A DNA stretch of 64,000 nucleotides. It comes from a virus. Below the pieces are notes generated by a model. The model was not told the origin of the DNA and did not search any database. It saw nothing but the letters and a program-made list of their open reading frames with translations. Numbering within the stretch: position 1 is the first letter of the stretch; every line of letters begins with the position of its first letter. A program made the translations under genes and the position numbers. Positions 449-10,640 of this stretch are shown one piece after another. Where the stretch lies: positions 1 to 64,000 of the IMG/VR virus record IMGVR_UViG_3300034104_004920; one strand, written 5' to 3'.

Positions 449-602
449 GTGGTTTTTTAACCACACACGGTTTAGTCGGGATTAGAAAAACCTTGACACG
501 GTCGCCAATATTATGTTATAATATTGGCGCCATAATACCCCTATAACCTGGTCAACAATAGGGGTATTAGGTCAAATAATAAGGGGCTATAAGCCCCTTT
601 TA

Positions 603-767
603 TTATTCCCTGATATGTTCTAGTATATCCATTGCCAATTTTTCCATTTCGTCTGTAATATCCACATCAGACATCGGCTGTAGAGCCAGTTTAATAATAA
701 GTGCCAACCGTATCATTTCTTCGTGGCTGAGTGAAATAATATATTCAGTTTTGGTTTCAATTTGCAT
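603..767 (-). CDS. Small hypothetical protein, 54 aa (MQIETKTEYIISLSHEEM...), below the ORF-track cutoff
   Basis: AAGGAG SD, ATG at 767, TAA at 603-605, ends at hairpin 575-607. Confidence 0.7.
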   Translation of the reverse strand: MQIETKTEYIISLSHEEMIRLALIIKLALQPMSDVDITDEMEKLAMDILEHIRE

Positions 768-796
768 TTTTGATTCTCCTTTTGAAAATGCGGATT

Positions 797-1183
797 TTAG
801 TCCAAATCAGTAACGGGTGAATATAATTCTCCGGTACTGAATCCTAGATCATTTAATATCTTTTCCAAGTGTGCTGCAATTAATTGGAATCGGTCATCGT
901 GATGATAGTTTTCATTAAAGCTGTTATCCTCGATCATTTTGGCATGGATTAATTCGTGTGCAATTACCCCATACACATCAAAATTGGATTCTAGTGTCTG
1001 GCCTAAATTAATAACAATTTTGTGTTTTTGGAGACGATTATTGCGAAACACAGTATCGCACCAACCGGCCAAACGACGTTGAGTCTTATTAAAAACTCGG
1101 GTTTTCAATACTACGTCAACTGGTTTCTGTATTTCCAATACAGAAACCACGGCTTGAATAAGCAACAATACGTCAGATTTCAT
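797..1183 (-). CDS. SprT-like zinc metalloprotease
   Basis: HELIH (HExxH) plus downstream H-x-x-x-F (HDDRF). Confidence 0.7.
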   Translation of the reverse strand: MKSDVLLLIQAVVSVLEIQKPVDVVLKTRVFNKTQRRLAGWCDTVFRNNRLQKHKIVINLGQTLESNFDVYGVIAHELIHAKMIEDNSFNENYHHDDRFQLIAAHLEKILNDLGFSTGELYSPVTDLD

Positions 1184-1219
1184 GGTGTGTTATATGGGGG
1201 TTATTAGCCCCCATATATT

Positions 1220-1918
1220 TTACTTGGCTACGAAATGTTCTTTTACTTGGTGTTTATTCCAGTCATATGGAATTACCTTTTCTCGCCAATCACGTTTTTT
1301 CAAGATATTGACCAAAATAGGAACCTCAAAATCTCGGGCATCTTCCAATGCAGTATGTGGCTCAGTCTTAAACTCGCCACTCACAAAACCACAAACACTT
1401 TCAGCTGTGGTTTTGTAGGTCATGTTTTGGTTGACAGTGGGAGAATTGAATAGGTGATTATCCATGCAAAACTGCCGATAGCGCTTAGTATGGGTAATAT
1501 TACCGATACTAGCGTGCCAAAGGCAGAATTTATCATTGAAAATGTTAAGATCAATTCCGGTTTTGTCGCACTTATCACGATCAAAAGCCAGATTGTATGC
1601 GGTAAGGGTTGGATTATATTTACCAACAGCCTGATTCAGCCATTTATTAATGGCAGCTGTACTGGCAAGCATACGAATACCCGAATTAAGCATGGAGACA
1701 TATGCTGCTTTACGCTTTTCCAAACCCTCATACCCCCAAATATCATTTGCACGTTTATCGTGGAACAATTCATATGTGCCATAATGGTCTTTTACCAATA
1801 CTGCACATTGGTTATAAATCTTGCCATCACGGTCAACAATAACCGCGGCAAAATCAGCCACGGTATTTTCCATCGTGGTTTCAGTATCCACCACGCACCA
1901 GAATTGCTTTTTAGCCAT
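1220..1918 (-). CDS. DEDDh (DnaQ-like) 3'-5' exonuclease
   Basis: ExoI VVDTETT, ExoII AYNLAFD, ExoIII HTALEDA. Start moved to MAKKQF (GAAGGT SD). Confidence 0.85.
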   Translation of the reverse strand: MAKKQFWCVVDTETTMENTVADFAAVIVDRDGKIYNQCAVLVKDHYGTYELFHDKRANDIWGYEGLEKRKAAYVSMLNSGIRMLASTAAINKWLNQAVGKYNPTLTAYNLAFDRDKCDKTGIDLNIFNDKFCLWHASIGNITHTKRYRQFCMDNHLFNSPTVNQNMTYKTTAESVCGFVSGEFKTEPHTALEDARDFEVPILVNILKKRDWREKVIPYDWNKHQVKEHFVAK

Positions 1919-1982
1919 ATTAACCTTCACACATGAAACCGGAAAGGGCCGGAGTCTCGCCCATGCTTTGCAGCACCTGCCG

Positions 1983-2011
1983 AGTGTACCGGTTTTTGTG
2001 ATGTATTGCAA
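1983..2011 (-). promoter_or_regulatory. Leftward promoter of exonuclease cassette
   Basis: TTGCAA-N17-TACACT on minus strand. Confidence 0.6.
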
Positions 2012-2110
2012 GCCCCTACAGTGTGGTCAACTATTGACCAGGCGGCTTGACGGGGGCCAATTATATAATATATAATTGGCGCCAATATAAGGGTTTACCC
2101 TTATATTGAT

Positions 2111-2359
2111 TTATTTCCTTTCCCAGATTTTATATCTTATCATTATGACGACGAAAAACAGATTTAGTATGTAGTTGAATAACAGTGGCATATCTCCTTT
2201 TGGAAATATATAAACAATGGTGAATAACTCCCCAAAGAACCAACAACCCAAGAAAAAGGGGTTTAATCCTCGGGCGTGGCCGTCTTTTGCACATTGCAAA
2301 ACCTGGGGAATTGCACATATTGCAAATAATATGCTACCAATCCAACCTATAGTTTCCAT
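2111..2359 (-). CDS. PQ-loop / SemiSWEET-family 3-TM transporter
   Basis: METIGWIGSILFAICAIPQV..., PQ motif after TM1, three hydrophobic helices, conserved N in TM3 (LLFNY). Confidence 0.8.
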   Translation of the reverse strand: METIGWIGSILFAICAIPQVLQCAKDGHARGLNPFFLGCWFFGELFTIVYIFPKGDMPLLFNYILNLFFVVIMIRYKIWERK

Positions 2360-2360
2360 T

Positions 2361-2825
2361 TTAGTGACCCTGAACCGAGGGAATATAAACACCGCGGATA
2401 TTGAAATGATCGCAAACTGCTTTTAGGTAACTCACATTGTCTTCGTAAAATACACAATCCGCAGTTTTGAATTGCTTCAAGTTGAAAAACTTTTGCAAAC
2501 CCTTGATTTTAAGAGTTTTGCCAGACTGATTATCACCGTCACGACGCGAGATAAGATAATCGGGACTGCCGAGAATCTCACGGATAAACACATTATCCAA
2601 TTCGCGCACAATACGCGCAGTGGCGATAATTACATAAGTATTTGGGTCTTGCAAATCACGACGATATTGAGACACAAGAGGAAGCAAACCATCTTGCATA
2701 CACCGATTTTCATTATCGCGCCAGTATTGCAAATCGATTTTGACAATACCATTTTCTGTTACCGTGCGGTAACGGTGGCTGCTATCAACGATCGTGCCGT
2801 CCATGTCATAAATTGCAACCTTCAT
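2361..2825 (-). CDS. HAD-superfamily phosphatase (PNK-phosphatase/5'-nucleotidase-like)
   Basis: Motif I YDMDGT, motif II ATAR, conserved K, motif IV FYEDN. Confidence 0.85.
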   Translation of the reverse strand: MKVAIYDMDGTIVDSSHRYRTVTENGIVKIDLQYWRDNENRCMQDGLLPLVSQYRRDLQDPNTYVIIATARIVRELDNVFIREILGSPDYLISRRDGDNQSGKTLKIKGLQKFFNLKQFKTADCVFYEDNVSYLKAVCDHFNIRGVYIPSVQGH

Positions 2826-3026
2826 TTTGAACCCCTTGTTTTGTAGAGCCCGAGTGTAGCACGTTCGCCCAGGCGACACAAGCCCCCAACAATGACCCTA
2901 CGTCGTGGTCAACCATTGATGTGGTGGCTTGACACGGCCCAATTTTATATTATAAAATTGGCGCCCCTATTAGGGTTTACCCTAATAGGGGTTTTTAAAT
3001 AATAAGGGGTATAACCCCTTATTATG

Positions 3027-3359
3027 TTAGGCAATGGCTTTTGCAATATCTCGAGCCTTTGCCCCTAGCCGGTTCACAATATTTTCTGACCAGTGGCCGC
3101 CAATATTGCAGGGCAATACCTGCATACTCGCCCAACGGTCCAACACAAGATACTCGGCAACATCGTAGCGATACAGGGATTCTTCCACGCTGGCAAGACT
3201 CAGCGCAAATTTGCCAGTATCAATGCCGGTTTGCTTGATACCAACACAAACCCCCAGCAGGGGAAAATGAAAGATAACCACGTCGGGATAATCCGCCCGC
3301 ATATCTTGCAGAATATCCAATTCCGTATCATTCAAGACGGTTTGATTCACATTACGCAT
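3027..3359 (-). CDS. Hypothetical protein
   Basis: 110-aa ORF, AAAGG SD, ends at hairpin 2999-3025. Confidence 0.7.
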   Translation of the reverse strand: MRNVNQTVLNDTELDILQDMRADYPDVVIFHFPLLGVCVGIKQTGIDTGKFALSLASVEESLYRYDVAEYLVLDRWASMQVLPCNIGGHWSENIVNRLGAKARDIAKAIA

Positions 3360-3447
3360 GATAAGCCCTTTCTATGGCTTGGTTGGGAAAATGGTTTGCT
3401 TAGAGTATGTTATACCCTAAGCAAACCCCTTTCGGGGTTTGCGTCAA

Positions 3448-3780
3448 TCATTCGATTGGACGGGAATTGGCCAGTGCATCGAAGATCGCTTTCAATGCAC
3501 GCTTGTTAGCCTTGGTGAGACTGTCCACGTCAGGCTCCGACAGCATGAGGATTTTGCCGATAGCCTCGGCGTGTGCATCCTTCTTCACGGGAGACTCACC
3601 AGTCTTGGTAACATAGGTCTTCTTCTGGTAAACACCCTCACGACTCAGTTTCGCAACAATCGAGCGAACCGATTTACCGAGACTCTCGGCAAGGGCTTCG
3701 ACCGTAGTGCCGGCCTTGTACGCTTCGACCAGAGCAGCAGTCTGCTCAGGAGTATAATTCACAACCTTTTCACTAGCCAT
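3448..3780 (-). CDS. A2-like pre-early DNA-binding (HTH) protein, paralog 1
   Basis: NYTPEQT...LAESLGKSVRSIVAKLSREGVYQKK...KKDAHAEAIG...SLTKANKRAL resembles T5 A2 by eye; GGAG SD. Confidence 0.65.
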   Translation of the reverse strand: MASEKVVNYTPEQTAALVEAYKAGTTVEALAESLGKSVRSIVAKLSREGVYQKKTYVTKTGESPVKKDAHAEAIGKILMLSEPDVDSLTKANKRALKAIFDALANSRPIE

Positions 3781-3852
3781 TTTCAGTTTCTCCGAGTTAA
3801 CACGCATGGGGAAATTTTGGCAATGCCGGGCAATCCCCTCAACCTATGCTGA

Positions 3853-3955
3853 TATTATACAGGGTCAGTATTCCCCCGTCAAGTATTGTGTTTTCTTTCC
3901 TTTCTGTTCGTCGTCGTCAGGGACACAGTATAACGGTTTTTCAGCCTGGACACAA
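3853..3955 (-). promoter_or_regulatory. Tandem leftward promoters upstream of A2-like gene
   Basis: TTGTGT-N17-TATACT (~3927-3955), whose leader has AAAGGA but no start codon, then TTGACG-N17-TATAAT (~3854-3882). Confidence 0.6.
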
Positions 3956-4078
3956 TACCCTAGTGCAATGTGGGGTCTTTGCGCCAGGCGGTGATTGGCA
4001 GTTAACCAGGCGGTAGCCAGCAGTTAACCAGGGGTAAGTCCCTATTGACAGCTGAGTTAGATTGTGATATAATTTTGG

Positions 4079-4180
4079 CGCACCCCATAGGTGTTACCTA
4101 TGGGGTGCGGCGGCTCAATAGGTAACACCTATTGAGCCGCACACAAAAAAGCCGACAAAAACAGTCGGCTTTTTTGTGTG
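4079..4180 (+). ncRNA. Candidate ~95-nt small RNA: two hairpins plus intrinsic terminator
   Basis: Promoter TTGACA(4045)-N17-TATAAT(4068). Stems at 4079-4109 and 4110-4140, then GCCGAC/GTCGGC stem followed by T6. No ORF. Confidence 0.5.
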
Positions 4181-4263
4181 GCCCTTGACAGGGCCCAAAA
4201 TTATATGTTATAATTTTGGCGCAAATTAGCCGCCTGGCCAGGCGGCTAATTATACTGTGATTA

Positions 4264-4425
4264 TTATTCGTCGGTGTTGACGACAATGGTGGAAACGTGG
4301 GGGTCGGAATTGGGGACGTCGTCCAGCATCTTGACCCTATACGCCACCCAGTTGATGCTGGTGTAGTATTCCTGATGATGCTTGAAGTGTTGTTCGTCCC
4401 ACCATTCGATCATGTAAACCTTCAT
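4264..4425 (-). CDS. Small hypothetical protein, 53 aa (MKVYMIEWWDEQHFKHHQEYY...)
   Basis: Own leftward promoter and AAAGGA SD; double TAA stop; not in ORF track. Confidence 0.75.
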   Translation of the reverse strand: MKVYMIEWWDEQHFKHHQEYYTSINWVAYRVKMLDDVPNSDPHVSTIVVNTDE

Positions 4426-4597
4426 TTGGGTTCCTTTCGTGTTGCAGAGAACACAGTATAACGCTTTTTAAGCCGCACAGCACATACCCGAGCGCATCGT
4501 GGGGTCTTTTAGCCAGGCCCTTGACAGGGCCCAAAATTATATGTTATAATTTTGGCGCCATAATAACCCTATAATATATAGGGTTATTATGTGGTCG

Positions 4598-4759
4598 TTA
4601 GAAAAACCCCATGTTGATTATTTTGTAGTCCAGTTTGGGGCACTTTTTGCCTAAATTCTTTTTCAATTCTACACAATCCCTTTCTAAATCCGATAGGTTT
4701 TGATAGTGACACACCAAAACATTATCGAAAAACAAACCCCAGACTTTTACAACACCCAT
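4598..4759 (-). CDS. Small hypothetical protein, 53 aa (MGVVKVWGLFFDNVLVCHY...)
   Basis: Overlaps stop of upstream gene and ends at module hairpin. Confidence 0.55.
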   Translation of the reverse strand: MGVVKVWGLFFDNVLVCHYQNLSDLERDCVELKKNLGKKCPKLDYKIINMGFF

Positions 4760-4959
4760 TTTGAAATCCCCACCAGGTTAGCGCACAAGAAAAACCCGTT
4801 CAATACACTGAGGGATTTATCCCTTTTCGTGATCCCTATATATAGCCACGATATCGAACCAATAATAAACAAACTGTATCCCAAAATATATATCTGAAAC
4901 GCAACCAGAAAACTGCCGATAACCGAGCTTATAGTGCCTAGCCACGATATATACCCCAT
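4747..4959 (-). CDS. Small 3-TM membrane protein (PnuC/YgjV-like half-transporter fold suspected)
   Basis: 70 aa, almost entirely hydrophobic, pattern W-G....G..L....GY..F..G...W. Confidence 0.65.
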   Translation of the reverse strand: MGYISWLGTISSVIGSFLVAFQIYILGYSLFIIGSISWLYIGITKRDKSLSVLNGFFLCANLVGISKWVL

Positions 4960-4960
4960 T

Positions 4961-5326
4961 TCAAATCCGTTTGTAGTTTACCATGTTATGGCATCGTTCT
5001 GGAGGCAGACCTAATTCTTTCATAATCTTTTTCCAGCTTTTGCCATGCCCAAAATCATTATACACCAGAAAAGCCACACAGTGTGCCAATTCATGGGGAA
5101 TAATGACGTTACAAAATTCGTCGGGATATTGTTCGAACAATTCAACCGACAAGTCTATATACTGCGGGTCGTGCTCAATAAAAGCACGTCCTGCGGTAGT
5201 TTTCAGCCGTTTATTCAAAACTACCGCAGGAGCAGTTTTGGTTAAGTTGGGGTACAGATTGCACAGTATGTCCCAAGTGTTTTGGGCACTGCGGTCTGCG
5301 ACTTGTTGCATTGTGGAGTCTTTCAT
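4961..5326 (-). CDS. SprT-family zinc metalloprotease
   Basis: LNKRLKTTAGRA, PHELAH, HGKSWKKIM...LG...RCH are typical SprT motifs. Confidence 0.85.
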   Translation of the reverse strand: MKDSTMQQVADRSAQNTWDILCNLYPNLTKTAPAVVLNKRLKTTAGRAFIEHDPQYIDLSVELFEQYPDEFCNVIIPHELAHCVAFLVYNDFGHGKSWKKIMKELGLPPERCHNMVNYKRI

Positions 5327-5467
5327 GGGCCGGATTCTACTACAAAAATTTGGCTACCACAAGACCCCTCGACCAGGTCAACTATTGCTAGTGTCACTTG
5401 ACACGGTCGCCAATATTATATTATAATATTGGCGCCAGTATTAGGGTTTACCCTAATACTGGCCTTA

Positions 5468-5659
5468 TTAAATAGGTTCGACTTTGTAGACAGTATGTTG
5501 AACAAGCCTTACAGGAATACCATCATATATTTGAAGGTATTGCATATCGATTGGTCTGTCATCAGACCACGATTCCAATTGCTCCACAATTTCTTCGACG
5601 GTTGAACCCGTAGCGATATACTCGGCGATATCGCTGGCAGTATAGATTCCAAACAGCAT
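5468..5659 (-). CDS. Small acidic hypothetical protein
   Basis: AAAGGAAACATCATG SD/start; weakly similar to neighbour 5684-5878. Confidence 0.7.
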   Translation of the reverse strand: MLFGIYTASDIAEYIATGSTVEEIVEQLESWSDDRPIDMQYLQIYDGIPVRLVQHTVYKVEPI

Positions 5660-5683
5660 GATGTTTCCTTTCTTGAAATGTGG

Positions 5684-5878
5684 TTAGTCCGGCAAGACAT
5701 CCCATTTAGCAACCATAGTCATGGAAACCTTGACTTCTTCAGCCCTAAATACCTTTAGGTATATTGGGTCTATTTCTTCCCCTGCTTGACGAGTCAAGTC
5801 TGCGATTATTGGCTCAAGACTGCTGGCACACGCCCACAAGTCTTCACCGTGATCGGTGTAATACACTGCAATAAGCAT
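5684..5878 (-). CDS. Small acidic hypothetical protein
   Basis: Same leader TTCAAGAAAGGAAACATCATGCT as 5468-5659. Confidence 0.7.
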   Translation of the reverse strand: MLIAVYYTDHGEDLWACASSLEPIIADLTRQAGEEIDPIYLKVFRAEEVKVSMTMVAKWDVLPD

Positions 5879-5920
5879 GATGTTTCCTTTCTTGAAAAGG
5901 GGGATACTATCCCCCGGATA

Positions 5921-6241
5921 TCACACGATCAACGAGAGCTTTTGCAGAATCTTTTGCAATGCGGTTTTGTTCGCCTTGGTGAGACTGCTAGTCTCGGGCT
6001 CTGTCAATTCACAAAGAACCCCGATTTTGTCTGCCAGCTCTTCTTTTGAAACAACTGTTTCACCAGTCTTGGTAACATACTCCTTTTTCTTGTAAACACC
6101 TTCCCGGCTCAGTTTGGCCACCACACTGCGAACACTCTTGCCCAGCGTGGCTGCAATACTTTCCACGGGAACACCCTTGCTATACCCGTCCAGCATTTGT
6201 TGGACCTGCTCGGGAGTGTAGTTTGCGGTTTTCTCAGTCAT
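5921..6241 (-). CDS. A2-like pre-early DNA-binding protein, paralog 2
   Basis: Clearly homologous to 3448-3780 (NYTPEQ, LGKSVRSxVAKLSREGVY, YVTKTGE, SLTKANK). Confidence 0.65.
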   Translation of the reverse strand: MTEKTANYTPEQVQQMLDGYSKGVPVESIAATLGKSVRSVVAKLSREGVYKKKEYVTKTGETVVSKEELADKIGVLCELTEPETSSLTKANKTALQKILQKLSLIV

Positions 6242-6256
6242 CTTCTTTCCTTTCAG

Positions 6257-6352
6257 TCAAAGACCATCGCCGACAATAATAGCAATTCCCATTGCAAGAA
6301 TCGCCACCCAGAATGGGCTAGTAGCCCACAAAATCAGAAAAAGATCCGACAT
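6257..6352 (-). CDS. 31-aa single-pass membrane peptide (MSDLFLILWATSPFWVAILAMGIAIIVGDGL)
   Basis: GAGGGG SD; fills the gap between two genes. Confidence 0.55.
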   Translation of the reverse strand: MSDLFLILWATSPFWVAILAMGIAIIVGDGL

Positions 6353-6353
6353 T

Positions 6354-6551
6354 TTAACCCCTCTTTGAATAAACAACCAGACCCGTGAGATACTCGCGCT
6401 TGCCTGCCATGTAGCTGCGACGCACCACATAGGACTTCAAGCCCAGCATGTTAGCAGACCTAATGGCTTCAGTCAACAGGCTAGTGCCCGTGGTGACTGG
6501 TTTGTAGGCAACTTCACTGTGAAAAACAGTGTAAACAGGTTCGTAACCCAT
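6354..6551 (-). CDS. Hypothetical protein (MGYEPVYTVF...)
   Basis: GGAG SD before ATG 6551; leftward promoter ~6589-6618. Confidence 0.65.
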   Translation of the reverse strand: MGYEPVYTVFHSEVAYKPVTTGTSLLTEAIRSANMLGLKSYVVRRSYMAGKREYLTGLVVYSKRG

Positions 6552-6820
6552 CGAAGGTCTCCGGTTGTTCGTCGTTTCCATGGGATAGAGTATAACGGTT
6601 TTTCGGCCCATCCACAATACCCTAGTGCATCGTGTGGTCTTTGAACCAGGCCTAGGGGTAAGTCCCTATTGACAGCAAGAATTTGGTGTGGTATAATTTT
6701 GGCGCCACAAAAACCCTACGATCTGTAGGGTTTTTGCAGCCAGGCCGTTGACACGGCCCAAAATTATGTGTTATAATTTTGGCGCCACAAAGCCCCCACA
6801 TTCTGTGGGGGCTTTGGTTA

Positions 6821-6979
6821 TCACTCCCACATAGTTTTACGGGTCGCGATAGAGGCGATTGTAGCAAGAGGAAATTTCTTCCTGAAGTCTTCGATGGCCA
6901 GATCGCGGGTCTCAGCACGAATAGCCACCGAGTAGCTGCCGAAACCTTCAACTGCGTTAAAGTAGAACCAGGTCTTCAT
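6821..6979 (-). CDS. Small hypothetical protein (MKTWFYFNAVEG...)
   Basis: Conserved cassette leader AAAGGAACACGAGATG. Confidence 0.75.
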   Translation of the reverse strand: MKTWFYFNAVEGFGSYSVAIRAETRDLAIEDFRKKFPLATIASIATRKTMWE

Positions 6980-7156
6980 CTCGTGTTCCTTTCTGCTGCT
7001 GTGAACACAGTATAGCACAACACCGCAACACCTAACTTTTAACCCCTCAGTGTGGTCAACTATCCGGGCACGCGCTTGACACGGCCCAAAATTATGTGTT
7101 ATAATTTTGGCGCCACAAAGCCCCCACATTCTGTGGGGGCTTTGATTGATTGGTGA

Positions 7157-7348
7157 TTACTTTGACTTCAAGTCATTCGTGTGCCATTCCACGCTACGCG
7201 CCACGCTCTCGTTTTCGCGCACAGCACTGGCCAGCATACCCGTCAGGTAACCGACAACAAAGGACTCGGAATAGCCCTTGCTAGCAGCGCGCTCGCGGGC
7301 GGCCTGGAGCAGGGCTTGGACTTGGTTGTAGGCTTCGGTAGCAGTCAT
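7157..7348 (-). CDS. Small hypothetical protein (MTATEAYNQV...)
   Basis: Conserved cassette leader AAAGGAACACGAGATG. Confidence 0.75.
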   Translation of the reverse strand: MTATEAYNQVQALLQAARERAASKGYSESFVVGYLTGMLASAVRENESVARSVEWHTNDLKSK

Positions 7349-7514
7349 CTCGTGTTCCTTTCCTGTTGCAGTGAACGCAGTATAGCACAAGACCGTGCCC
7401 GTGCAAGACCTAAATTTTAACCCCTCAGTGTGGTCAACTATCCAGGCCACCGCTTGACACGGGCCAATTATATAATATATAATTGGCGCCCGAATAGGGG
7501 TTTACCCCTATTCG

Positions 7515-7646
7515 TTATTCTTCATATACTATGAAGTATGGAGTTTCCCCATAATCTCCAGAGTATTCAATGGGATGGTCCGGATTGAACAGAGTCATAT
7601 CAATCCCAGTATCCCAGAAAACATCAAAAACCCAGTCCTGATACAT
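7515..7646 (-). CDS. 43-aa acidic/aromatic peptide (MYQDWVFDVFWDTGID...)
   Basis: AAAGGAAG SD; shares YQDWV with 8619-8753. Confidence 0.65.
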   Translation of the reverse strand: MYQDWVFDVFWDTGIDMTLFNPDHPIEYSGDYGETPYFIVYEE

Positions 7647-7656
7647 ATACTTCCTT

Positions 7657-7881
7657 TCAATAGTCTAGCCAATCGCCCATACTCTCGATTTTGGAGGCTG
7701 CTTCCTCCACACTAACCACATACTGAACCCGATCAACCCAGTTGGGGCTATCCGGGCCAATATACATAACACAACACCAGCGGCCCGTAGCACCACGCGC
7801 AAGACAGTGGATACCCTGTATGGGCCGGGGATACTTCGTACCCGTCATGTCGCATTCGGTGATCATGCCAAAAATCATCAT
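7657..7881 (-). CDS. Hypothetical protein
   Basis: CAGGAG SD; in cassette operon. Confidence 0.65.
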   Translation of the reverse strand: MMIFGMITECDMTGTKYPRPIQGIHCLARGATGRWCCVMYIGPDSPNWVDRVQYVVSVEEAASKIESMGDWLDY

Positions 7882-7901
7882 GGTATATACTCCTGATTTG
7901 A

Positions 7902-8096
7902 TTACGCCATTACTCGGTCGATATAAGCCTGGGCCTGTTCCACAGTCTTAAAAGACTTGACCTGCTTGGTGACCCAGTAGGCGTCCTGCCGGATGGTGTC
8001 AAACTTGAACACCTGCACCTGGACAGTGCGAGTAGCCCACGGTACAACAAACGCCCTGACAGTACCAAGGGCCGGGGGAGTGTAGGTGGTGGTCAT
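7902..8096 (-). CDS. Hypothetical protein (MTTTYTPP...)
   Basis: Cassette leader GAGGAACACGAGATG. Confidence 0.75.
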   Translation of the reverse strand: MTTTYTPPALGTVRAFVVPWATRTVQVQVFKFDTIRQDAYWVTKQVKSFKTVEQAQAYIDRVMA

Positions 8097-8289
8097 CTCG
8101 TGTTCCTCTTGTGTTGCTGTGAACACAGTATAGCACAACACCACACCAGCACAACATCAAAATTTTAACCCCTCGACCAGGTCAACTATTGTGCGGGGGG
8201 CTTGACCAGGCCACCAAAATTATGATATAATTTTGGCGCCCGAATAAGGGTTGTCCCTTATTCGGTTTTGTCTTACTGAGAGTAGGATA

Positions 8290-8451
8290 TCAACCTATCG
8301 AGTAAGTGCCTCCGCGTGGCACGCCGATGTCATCTAGTAGGACGTCAATTACCGTTTGGGAAACCACAGCCCTACCATTGACAAACACGGCATCGACCAA
8401 GTAAGAATACCTGCGGCCGTTGAAACGGATGGAAACAAAAACCTTTTTCAT
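8290..8451 (-). CDS. Hypothetical protein (MKKVFVSIRF...)
   Basis: Cassette leader CAGGAGAACATGAAATG. Confidence 0.7.
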   Translation of the reverse strand: MKKVFVSIRFNGRRYSYLVDAVFVNGRAVVSQTVIDVLLDDIGVPRGGTYSIG

Positions 8452-8618
8452 TTCATGTTCTCCTGCTGCTGTGAACACAGTATAACACAAGACCGTGCCT
8501 GGACAACAATAAATTTTTGACCCTACAACCTACTCGGCTATTGTGGCCAAGCGGCTTGACCAGGCCACCAAAATTATGATATAATTTTGGCGCCCCAATA
8601 GGGGTAAACCCCTATTAA

Positions 8619-8753
8619 TTAGTCCGACCAACACCCCAATAATGGGGGATACTCTGTTTCTGGATATTCCCAGTTTACAGGATTATCCATTGCAATCTCC
8701 GTCAAATCCCAGTCATACAAATAGGGCAAAACCCAGTCTTGATAGTCGCTCAT
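8619..8753 (-). CDS. 44-aa acidic/aromatic peptide (MSDYQDWVLPYLYDWD...)
   Basis: Paralog-like to 7515-7646; ends at module hairpin. Confidence 0.6.
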   Translation of the reverse strand: MSDYQDWVLPYLYDWDLTEIAMDNPVNWEYPETEYPPLLGCWSD

Positions 8754-8764
8754 TTGTCGAACCC

Positions 8765-8899
8765 TTATTCTGTTAGTTCTCTGTATACCTGATCATAACT
8801 AACACAGTATTCCCATGCCGCATTTCTGCAAGCATCAAAGAAACTCATGTGATATACAGACATCAATTGCTTTGCGTAACACACGGCAGCTTCAAGCAT
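8765..8899 (-). CDS. 44-aa hypothetical protein (MLEAAVCYAKQLM...)
   Basis: Overlaps stop of upstream gene; fills the operon gap. Confidence 0.55.
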   Translation of the reverse strand: MLEAAVCYAKQLMSVYHMSFFDACRNAAWEYCVSYDQVYRELTE

Positions 8900-9092
8900 T
8901 TTGTTGCTTTCTGGCATAAACACACAGTTTGTAATAATGGTTTACCATATCCATCAACTGCTGGGCATTTTCTCTTTGTTTAGGATCCTTCAATTCATTT
9001 TCAATTTGTTCGATAAACGCTTTGAAGGTAACGAACAGAAAACCATCGCTCATGGTTTCGGAAATGTATTGCAGTTTTTCTGTAGTATTCAT
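8892..9092 (-). CDS. Hypothetical protein
   Basis: 66-aa ORF in operon. Confidence 0.65.
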   Translation of the reverse strand: MNTTEKLQYISETMSDGFLFVTFKAFIEQIENELKDPKQRENAQQLMDMVNHYYKLCVYARKQQNA

Positions 9093-9103
9093 TTCTTACC
9101 CTT

Positions 9104-9307
9104 TCAAACCCGGAACGTGGGGCTCACGCCGACCTTGTCAGCCACCATCCACACGTACTCCACGTACACTTCTTCTTCGCGGGCTTCCTGAGCCGCCACG
9201 TCCAGATCCCAGTTGGCCTGGTCGTATTCTTCACGAATGGTGATTTCGGCCATGTCCAGCTCAAAGGACTCGATGTCTTCACGGGTCATGTCAGCGGGGT
9301 AGTACAT
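9104..9307 (-). CDS. Highly acidic small protein
   Basis: D/E-rich 67 aa; AAGGAG SD; promoter TTGACA-N18-TATACT at ~9339-9368. Confidence 0.75.
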   Translation of the reverse strand: MYYPADMTREDIESFELDMAEITIREEYDQANWDLDVAAQEAREEEVYVEYVWMVADKVGVSPTFRV

Positions 9308-9474
9308 CTTGGGGCTCCTTGTCTGTGTCAGTAGAGTTAGTATAACGCAAAACAGCGTGTTGTGTCAAACCCGATCTTTGTGTGGGGTCTTTGGCCAGGC
9401 CCTTGACCTGGCCCAGAATTACATGATATAATTCTGGCGCCATAAAGCCCTTACAGTCTGTAAGGGCTTTGGTA

Positions 9475-9681
9475 TCAATGCCATTCCGGCTTGATCCTGG
9501 GCTTCTTCATACGCCAGAACATACGCCACTTGCATCCCTGGGGCGTAAGGGCTTGGGTATTTTCGTAGACCACGAACCTGTTACCTCTCAGCTTTCCAAC
9601 CGGCTTGCCCGGGAGCTGGCCACGCAATAGCCTTTCGGCAGTCTTTTCATAGGTCTTGACAAGCATCGCAGTCTTCCTCAC
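9475..9681 (-). CDS. Basic hypothetical protein
   Basis: GTGA overlap with upstream stop; K/R-rich. Confidence 0.6.
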   Translation of the reverse strand: MRKTAMLVKTYEKTAERLLRGQLPGKPVGKLRGNRFVVYENTQALTPQGCKWRMFWRMKKPRIKPEWH

Positions 9682-9926
9682 TTCTTCTTCAAGAAAGTCT
9701 TTTCGTAATTGTCGATCATTGCAGTCTGTCGCTGATTCTGGTCCCTCAGCTTCTTAAGCTCAATTTGACTGAAGCCATACCGGGCTTCCATGTAGTTGAT
9801 GTAGTCGAGGGATTCTTCCAGCAGCTTCCAGAGCTTATCAGCATCGTGAGCCGCAAGCAGGGCTTTTCGAATCGTCTTGAGCCTAAAATCCTGGTCGCTG
9901 GACAGTTGGGGTTGATCGTTAGGCAT
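9678..9926 (-). CDS. Hypothetical coiled-coil protein (MPNDQPQL...)
   Basis: GGGAG SD, cassette leader and promoter upstream. Confidence 0.7.
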   Translation of the reverse strand: MPNDQPQLSSDQDFRLKTIRKALLAAHDADKLWKLLEESLDYINYMEARYGFSQIELKKLRDQNQRQTAMIDNYEKTFLKKK

Positions 9927-10094
9927 CTTTGCTCCCTTGTGTGTTGCAGTGAAGACAGTATAACCCAAAACACCACAGTCAGTCAAACCCGAGTGTTTTG
10001 TGGTGGAATTGTGTAGGGCCTTGACGGGGGCCAGAATATTGTGATATAATTCTGGCGCCATAAAGCCCTTACAGTCTGTAAGGGCTTTGGTCAA

Positions 10095-10610: not shown

Positions 10611-10640
10611 TTGACGTGGCCTAAAAACACATGGTACAAT
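10611..10640 (+). promoter_or_regulatory. Rightward promoter, last module variant
   Basis: TTGACG-N18-TACAAT with TG extension. Confidence 0.55.

Follow-up and report, generated by a model that had tools for sequence, protein, structure and literature searches.

The first 64,000 nucleotides (hereafter the window) of IMG/VR record IMGVR_UViG_3300034104_004920, a 97,277 bp uncultured lake virus, begin with an array of promoter modules in most of which the -10 box forms part of one arm of a perfect palindrome. The two arms mutate together across hundreds of copies of the module in this and related phages, so it is self-pairing itself that is selected. The finding is real, widespread and unusual, and the palindrome is a probable DNA-shape switch of the promoter.

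Sixteen modules of the form TTGAC(A)-N17/18-(TGn)TATAAT-N1-3-GGCGC(C) are found on the plus strand between 118 and 10058, and none on the minus strand. Each of the 16 gives 11–12 of 12 sigma70 consensus matches in a consensus scan, and 11 have TG at -15/-14. With TTGACA, a spacer of 17 +/- 1 bp, TGn and TATAAT, they have the make-up of sigma70 extended -10 promoters, in agreement with the family alignment, and are predicted to act as such. Across the genome the motif is confined to the array, save for a copy in the duplicated contig end. The genes of this region, called pre-early, are all on the minus strand while the modules are on the plus strand, and the consensus promoters are therefore antisense to them. 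A perfect palindrome of 9–13 bp is present in 12 of the 16 modules, a degenerate one in a single module and none in the remaining three. Its right arm consists of the -10 hexamer and the discriminator, spanning about -12 to -2, and its left arm is the mirror of this in the spacer. The discriminator is a short A/T stretch ended by GGCGCC, and the base of the stem is clamped by G/C pairs, which are partly those of GGCGCC itself. The -35 box lies outside the stem, 3–6 nt from the left arm, the paired part comprising the -10 box and discriminator only.

Evidence for selection on the pairing comes from a wider sample of the family. The search pattern used to collect copies from IMG/VR made no demand for palindromy and found more than 117 stretches; 389 distinct modules were taken from 124 related phage contigs or loci together with the window's own genome. 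The best-stem length is bimodal in this set, with 255 modules (66%) having perfect stems of 8–14 bp and the remainder stems of 2–7 bp, i.e., the chance level, and all palindromes of the sampled loci that contain a -10 box fall in the TTGAC...GGCGC frame. The mean best stem is 8.07 when modules are taken with their own left arm and 5.87 (standard deviation 0.08) with swapped left arms. In a non-circular version of the comparison, with the axis set only by the invariant bases A-11, A-9, A-8 and T-7 (n=276 copies), Watson-Crick pairing reaches 93.5% at position -10 (64% when shuffled), 96.4% at -6 (78%), 94.2% at -5 (60%) and 87.3% at -4 (51%). The mutual information at these four positions is 0.5–0.68 bit, a value matched by 0 of 2000 shuffles. 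Fully paired arm cores come in 13 different kinds, and minority arms are compensated in 87 copies, as against 14 copies with an interior uncompensated mismatch. Compensation extends into the -10 hexamer, where TAAAAT is accompanied by ATTTTA and TACAAT by ATTGTA; thus, the promoter consensus is to some extent sacrificed to pairing. In a random 150-copy alignment, a pair-count tool scored 81.6% of cells as paired, compared with 40–52% when the partner was slid, and 27 double changes, compared with 5.0 +/- 2.0 in shuffles, which places the helix above both kinds of control, as expected of one selected for its structure. A search for copies differing by one compensated pair only returned a single clean case, too few to use. 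These patterns show that selection acts on the self-complementarity of the DNA and not on its primary sequence.

A preliminary description of the window had singled out six of the palindromes, at 503, 2056, 2939, 4195, 8214 and 9413, all of which are present, although the copy at 2056, drawn with 11 bp arms and a 3-nt loop, actually has 12 bp arms and a 1-nt loop. Its propositions that the arms change together and that pairing is kept over primary sequence are upheld by the covariation, which lies far beyond chance across the family. It had also noted a recurring loop of about 3 nt; this is indeed the commonest loop of the family (143 of 255), but occurs in only five of the 12 perfect window copies. 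The recurrent 3-nt loop corresponds to TGN, the extended -10 motif, which a common choice of A or G at -16 extends to TRTG. The identity of this loop, the antisense direction of the promoters and the second palindrome coupled to the first did not figure in that description of the palindromes.

The palindromic modules of the window each have a second perfect palindrome directly after the first. Across the family this element has no conserved sequence, yet is almost always perfect, and it follows GGCGCC in 77% of the palindromic modules as against 39% of the others. As ordinary terminators the second palindromes were rejected, with only 4 of 13 passing a terminator scan, all on the plus strand, and with no U-tail on the minus strand.

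In neither the first nor the second palindrome do the mismatches show an excess of G.T or A.C on either strand, and this Watson-Crick-only pairing fits DNA with both strands mattering rather than a one-strand RNA. It bears on the proposal that the hairpin acts in RNA, with the two palindromes as tandem stem-loops on minus-strand read-through transcripts, serving each cistron for termination, processing or stability. The location agrees with such a role, in that the second palindrome begins a few bases past the stop codon of the upstream minus-strand gene and both palindromes would be transcribed there. However, G.U makes up less than 0.3% of the pairs on either strand compared with 5.5% in ordinary terminator stems of the same genome, there is no minus-strand U-tract (A accounts for 1.2 of 8 bases in the corresponding plus-strand stretch), and the perfect, in-frame -35, TGn and -10 elements are not required by an RNA role, which we regard as very improbable indeed.

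Watson-Crick-only symmetry is likewise what a duplex palindrome shows, and the modules might instead be duplex operators, on which a symmetric, flexible dimer, either an A2-like helix-turn-helix protein or a host factor, would occupy the -10 box and so repress the antisense promoters at a fixed moment. Without exception the element overlies the core promoter, where operators are classically found. Other promoter classes of the family carry another conserved motif, GGTTTTSCACTG, in the same spacer, so the spacers here do host recognition sites. Candidate binders are at hand, too, since two paralogous A2-like DNA-binding proteins are encoded on the minus strand inside the array, namely a small protein of 110 aa (3448–3780) and a second of 106 aa (5921–6241) that is 57% identical to the first. 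Both match the phrog_1725 profile, as the earlier assignment to A2 would have it: this family is defined by T5 A2 (4e-52), and the window proteins reach 3e-6 and 4e-4 with most of the profile covered, while the pairwise BLASTP match is weak (E 0.036). What such a dimer does not readily accommodate is the geometry. The spacing of the half-sites ranges from 10 to 16 bp as the axis shifts, also within single genomes, with loops of 1–7 nt and changes of loop parity, and of the 27 loci that have four or more palindromic modules, 25 mix two to four arm types, so that neither a conserved half-site nor a fixed centre-to-centre spacing can be discerned among the 13 arm cores. Varying spacing and mixed arm types are not predicted by a rigid dimer on half-sites and are predicted by a hairpin. 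Likewise, independent reading of half-sites does not predict the ratio of mirrored to lone half mutations (87 versus 14 copies), and the coupled second palindrome has no conserved sequence whatever. The dimer operator offered as an alternative in the preliminary description is thereby weakened, and we consider it unlikely.

The best fit to these observations, with confidence close to but short of even, would be a cruciform or hairpin switch lodged in a consensus host promoter, silencing a promoter of relaxed DNA. On relaxed DNA, such as DNA that is linear, nicked or newly injected, RNA polymerase would find a very strong site in the duplex promoter and transcribe from it against the direction of the pre-early genes. 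Negative torsion, perhaps supplied by gyrase acting on topologically held first-step-transfer DNA or by the divergent gene promoter 64–80 bp away, would open the AT-rich centre, and the palindrome would extrude as a cruciform; if the terminal repeat were single-stranded, the same folding would occur as a hairpin. Extrusion would take the -10 box, the discriminator and the spacer out of the duplex and thereby turn the promoter off. The second palindrome after GGCGCC, with its likewise Watson-Crick-only pairing, would belong to the same device. In terms of energetics, the palindromic window copies fold as single-stranded DNA with -8.9 to -11.8 kcal/mol (z -3.7 to -6.3), and the three non-palindromic promoters with 0 to -0.6 kcal/mol; the extrusion of 27 bp would, by a rough estimate, release ~15–19 kcal/mol at sigma -0.05 to -0.06.

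Several considerations weigh against such a switch. Stems of 10–13 bp usually need torsion above the average unconstrained level in cells, linear and possibly nicked T5-like DNA may not hold torsion, and the two neighbouring palindromes would be rivals for the superhelical energy available. A third of the family promoters do without a palindrome, and the biological use of antisense transcription is left unexplained by the switch. The shuffle tests, moreover, ignore the relatedness of the copies, and the controls do not fully remove kinship; RNAalifold returned no consensus helix from the unselected 150-copy alignment, in which the palindrome is missing, or its axis displaced, in about 30% of the rows.

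Carried further, the cruciform switch might make the array a timer of two-step DNA entry that is gated by topology. Its dozen consensus promoters would be active only on relaxed terminal-repeat DNA, either freshly after injection or, at a later stage, when nicked, and each pre-early cassette would be met by antisense or short hairpin RNAs. Anchoring and supercoiling of the first-step DNA would then cause the cruciforms to extrude and silence all these promoters together. This wider scheme is doubtful as it stands; were it true, the pre-early programme of this T5-like clade would be governed by the shape of the DNA instead of by a repressor.

The setting of the modules is one of opposed promoters. 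The minus-strand genes have a conserved extended -10 promoter of their own, TGnTATACT with a short 5' hairpin, which in eight modules lies 64–80 bp to the left of the plus-strand -35. An example is found on the minus strand at 4441–4500, with TATACT (reverse complement of 4455–4460) and a GTGTTCxCxG 5' hairpin, and the TATACT box recurs at 3927 (118 bp from its -35), 6589, 7009, 7379, 8127, 8479, 9339 and 9957. The same back-to-back layout is seen in the family, with TGTATAAT on the opposite strand ~75 nt upstream. In this clade the pre-early region shows itself to be a series of cassettes, each bordered by a gene promoter and by an antisense promoter that is the stronger of the two, a layout found neither in T5 nor in the nearest cultured relative. 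The minus-strand gene promoters (at 4441–4470, 6995–7020 and elsewhere in the window) also share TG-N-TATACTGTGTTCAC, with a 5-bp inverted repeat in it (CTGTG-TT-CACAG) where the mRNA is predicted to begin. Two further roles for the array were considered and set aside. A bidirectional promoter, with the mirror -10 firing leftward, does not agree with the geometry of divergent promoters, as the mirror hexamer lacks TG and has no conserved -35, the place for which is taken up by the variable second palindrome. A role in feeding the late operon was ruled out as the late genes have their own promoters.

Individually, the palindromic modules, all on the plus strand, differ in arm length and loop. 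The module at 493–569 has its -35 at 493–498, arms at 503–514 and 518–529 (12 bp, loop GTT), the -10 box at 517–522, GGCGCC at 526–531 and the second palindrome at 533–544/558–569. It is followed at 2047–2108 by one with the -35 at 2047–2052, 12 bp arms around a 1-nt loop (2056–2067/2069–2080), the -10 at 2071–2076, GGCGCC at 2078–2083 and the second palindrome at 2083–2094/2097–2108. The module at 2929–2991 has 11 bp arms with a 1-nt loop (2939–2949/2951–2961), and here the -10 box is the variant TAAAAT (2953–2958) mirrored by ATTTTA; GGCGCC lies at 2960–2965, and the second palindrome (2964–2976/2979–2991) is succeeded by T5, a run of five thymines. At 4185–4251, arms of 11 bp enclose the loop TGT (4195–4205/4209–4219), with the -10 at 4209–4214, GGCGCA in the place of GGCGCC at 4218–4223 and the second palindrome at 4224–4237/4238–4251. 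The next module, 4521–4591, combines arms at 4531–4541/4545–4555 with GGCGCC at 4554–4559 and a second palindrome at 4559–4573/4577–4591, and that at 5398–5463 has 13 bp arms (5408–5420/5422–5434), with GGCGCC at 5431–5436 and the second palindrome at 5434–5447/5450–5463. Those at 6748–6816 and 7076–7144 have first arms at 6758–6767/6773–6782 and 7086–7095/7101–7110, GGCGCC at 6781–6786 and 7109–7114, and second palindromes at 6788–6800/6804–6816 and 7116–7128/7132–7144, respectively. In the module at 7454–7514, the arms (7463–7474/7476–7487) precede GGCGCC at 7485–7490 and a second palindrome at 7491–7501/7504–7514. Further along lie 8202–8265, with 10 bp arms around the loop GAT (8214–8223/8227–8236), GGCGCC at 8235–8240 and the second palindrome at 8240–8250/8255–8265, and 8556–8616, with arms at 8568–8577/8581–8590, GGCGCC at 8589–8594 and the second palindrome at 8597–8605/8608–8616. 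The last perfect copy, 9403–9470, has 9 bp arms and a 7-nt loop (9413–9421/9429–9437), GGCGCC at 9436–9441 and a second palindrome at 9444–9456/9458–9470; the degenerate module at 10021–10088 has 8 bp arms separated by an 11-nt loop (10030–10037/10049–10056), GGCGCC at 10054–10059 and a second palindrome at 10062–10074/10076–10088. The boundary of the array is marked by a last, degenerate plus-strand promoter at 10611–10640, TTGACG-N18-TACAAT, without palindrome and without GGCGCC.

The three modules without a palindrome, at 118, 4045 and 6669 on the plus strand, share the -35, -10 and GGCGC of the palindromic ones. The first (118–155) has the same frame, TTGACT-N18-TATAAT-GTGGGCGC, and its spacer has GGTTTTGCACTG, a DnaA-box-like motif. 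It is part of a second, non-palindromic promoter class of the same frame, with ~20 further copies in the family, whose spacer reads GGTTT(T/A)(G/C)CACTG. The other two are consensus promoter units: in 4045–4182, the promoter (4045–4081) is followed by two hairpins and a T6 terminator, and in 6669–6741, the promoter (6669–6705) is followed by a hairpin (6708–6719/6725–6736) and T5. Judged by this arrangement, both units look like short-RNA genes, and each sits just upstream of a palindromic module. Upstream of the -35, at a distance of 8–15 nt, a conserved motif GGTCAAC(T/C)ATT can be seen in several modules, at 2030–2040, 2912–2922, 5378–5390, 7055–7066, 7433–7444 and 8181–8192 of the window, and relatives have AAAATACAACATAGGGG in its place.

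Because the modules are repeated, they would also be points of recombination for the gain and loss of gene cassettes, and it might be asked whether they do anything else, i.e., whether they are mobile promoter/stem-loop cassettes without a regulatory role, akin to the promoter-early stem-loops (PeSLs) of T4-like phages, in which hairpin-templated strand switching during replication keeps the repeats perfect. In PeSLs, promoter and terminator are combined in one motif that is linked to the shuffling of cassettes (PMC4122927); the modules, for their part, are present in many copies that are near-identical in pairs, and the motif is indeed found at the borders of indels between close relatives: the relative L009 lacks window 9473–9931, exactly between two near-identical modules, and has a different open reading frame between the end of the second palindrome at 6816 and the start of the next gene at 6976. 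Recombination, however, accounts for copy number and not for complementarity through at least 13 arm types, the distribution is bimodal (perfect or chance) with few decayed intermediates, the -10 consensus has been given up to keep a pair (TACAAT), and such perfection of stems does not extend to the terminators elsewhere in the genome. A purely mobile element without regulatory function is, in our judgement, decidedly unlikely. The indels of L009 at 5678–5874 and 8911–9100 are not bounded by modules; the single small genes at 5684–5878 and 8892–9092 are absent from this relative.

The remaining element of the module, GGCGCC, could be read as a strand-specific nick or cleavage site presented by the hairpins on its two sides, akin to the single-chain interruptions of T5 or to the proposed cleavage by A1/A2. 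All modules are on one strand, and all 13 GGCGCC sites of the 97-kb genome are in modules, with none in the other 86 kb as against 4–6 expected; in T5, moreover, the major nick of the terminal repeat, A/GCGCAGG, is followed by a perfect palindrome. The consensus of the T5 interruptions on the nicked strand is R/GCGCRGG (PMC3517423), whereas the modules read GCGCC (GGCGCC(A/C/T)), and within the window it is the repeats at 192, 237 and 281 alone that conform to it. The other major nick sites of T5 are without a palindrome, GGCGCC in five relatives is enriched in the array but also present outside it, and the perfect frame of -35, TGn and -10 is unaccounted for by a nick, making such a function quite improbable for the modules. 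The conforming repeats belong to a block at 181–291, made up of three direct repeats GATTTTGCACTG/GGTTTTCCACTG plus GCGCAGGTG. They resemble the T5 site ATTTGCACAAAA/GCGCAGG of the injection-stop region, and their TTTTSCACT part is DnaA-box-like; the block is probably the counterpart of the iss block of T5. Adjoining it at 313–401 are ~4 perfect palindromes of the GCTTATATAAGC type, and a similar CTTATATAAGC block is present in a related locus, L130.

By its terminase and tail genes the phage itself is T5-like. The terminase is 48% identical to that of T5-like Vibrio phages of the Demerecviridae, and the gene order is likewise that of T5, with late genes leading to a small-gene region, a repeat block and the early/tRNA genes; megablast and blastn found no DNA-level match to cultured phages. 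Positions 1–197 of the window repeat 97081–97277 of the genome with one mismatch, i.e., the contig ends overlap by ~197 nt, and therefore the assembly looks circular, a long terminal repeat, if present, having been collapsed. Besides the two A2-like proteins, the genes of the array region include a HAD/PNK-like phosphatase and two SprT-like proteins with metalloprotease domains (797–1183 and 4961–5326). The same array occurs in the same place and orientation in the relatives found by terminase, and no such array is present in T5 itself or in the cultured phage most closely related to the present one.

Parallels may be drawn with several known systems. Phage repressor operators over -10 boxes agree with the modules in position and dyad symmetry, but have a fixed half-site sequence and spacing and are usually imperfect, whereas the modules drift in sequence and spacing and keep complementarity. 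The T4-like PeSLs (PMC2839356, PMC4122927) are alike in being repeated promoter-plus-stem-loop units that separate small accessory genes in a hyperplastic early region, where they bound the gain and loss of cassettes; their promoters, however, drive the downstream gene, whereas the modules are antisense, have an internal palindrome and are paired with a separate divergent gene promoter. With the early promoters of N4 the modules share a short hairpin, a loop of ~3 nt, a place on first-injected linear phage DNA and a stem that may vary if it remains paired. The N4-type promoter has a GC-rich heptamer centred at -11 in a 5–7 bp stem and no sigma70 boxes (PMC4496689). It is active as a hairpin, which an injected single-subunit polymerase recognises together with host SSB, and there is no -35 or -10. 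In contrast, the modules have consensus sigma70 elements, with AT-rich stems of 9–13 bp that include TATAAT and with TTGACA 17–18 bp upstream, and their hairpin would hide the promoter. No virion polymerase is encoded by the two giant open reading frames, which specify the tape measure protein and the central tail fibre, the rest of the genome not having been searched for a polymerase. The Frpo/ssi promoters of plasmid leading regions are alike in the intrastrand pairing of promoter boxes on first-entering DNA, but there a long stem-loop formed from single-stranded DNA rebuilds both -35 and -10 as duplex (PMC9849209), while the stem of the modules takes in the -10 alone and leaves out the -35, and the DNA of the phage is double-stranded. 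The modules are members of neither the N4 nor the Frpo family, and the likenesses proposed in the preliminary description do not amount to kinship with either.

The closest parallel is an engineered one. The N4 P1 hairpin, placed between the -35 and -10 of the E. coli rrnB promoter, silences it, and inhibition of gyrase restores its activity; in the same context, a linear phage genome can be, and that of N4 is presumed to be, under topological constraint while it is being injected (PMC4496689). That promoter and the modules are alike in using sigma70 and in having an extrudable inverted repeat in the core, with extrusion turning the promoter off and relaxation turning it on, as is here proposed for the modules. 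A synthetic cruciform-regulated promoter, attributed to Horwitz and Loeb in 1988, is reportedly similar to the rrnB case. To our knowledge, control by DNA secondary structure is known for very few natural promoters, mostly from single loci. The present clade provides several hundred copies with the -10 box kept self-complementary, even against the -10 consensus, and these constitute a ready-made mutational series for asking whether cruciforms regulate transcription in cells; they also bear on the topological handling of first-injected DNA in T5-like phages. The engineered rrnB promoter is a laboratory construct, whereas the modules are a natural family with comparative evidence for selection on pairing, and, unlike in the construct, their palindrome takes in the -10 box and discriminator themselves. 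They probably represent a DNA-shape switch acting on the promoter, which by analogy would be the natural counterpart of the engineered rrnB/N4-hairpin promoter.

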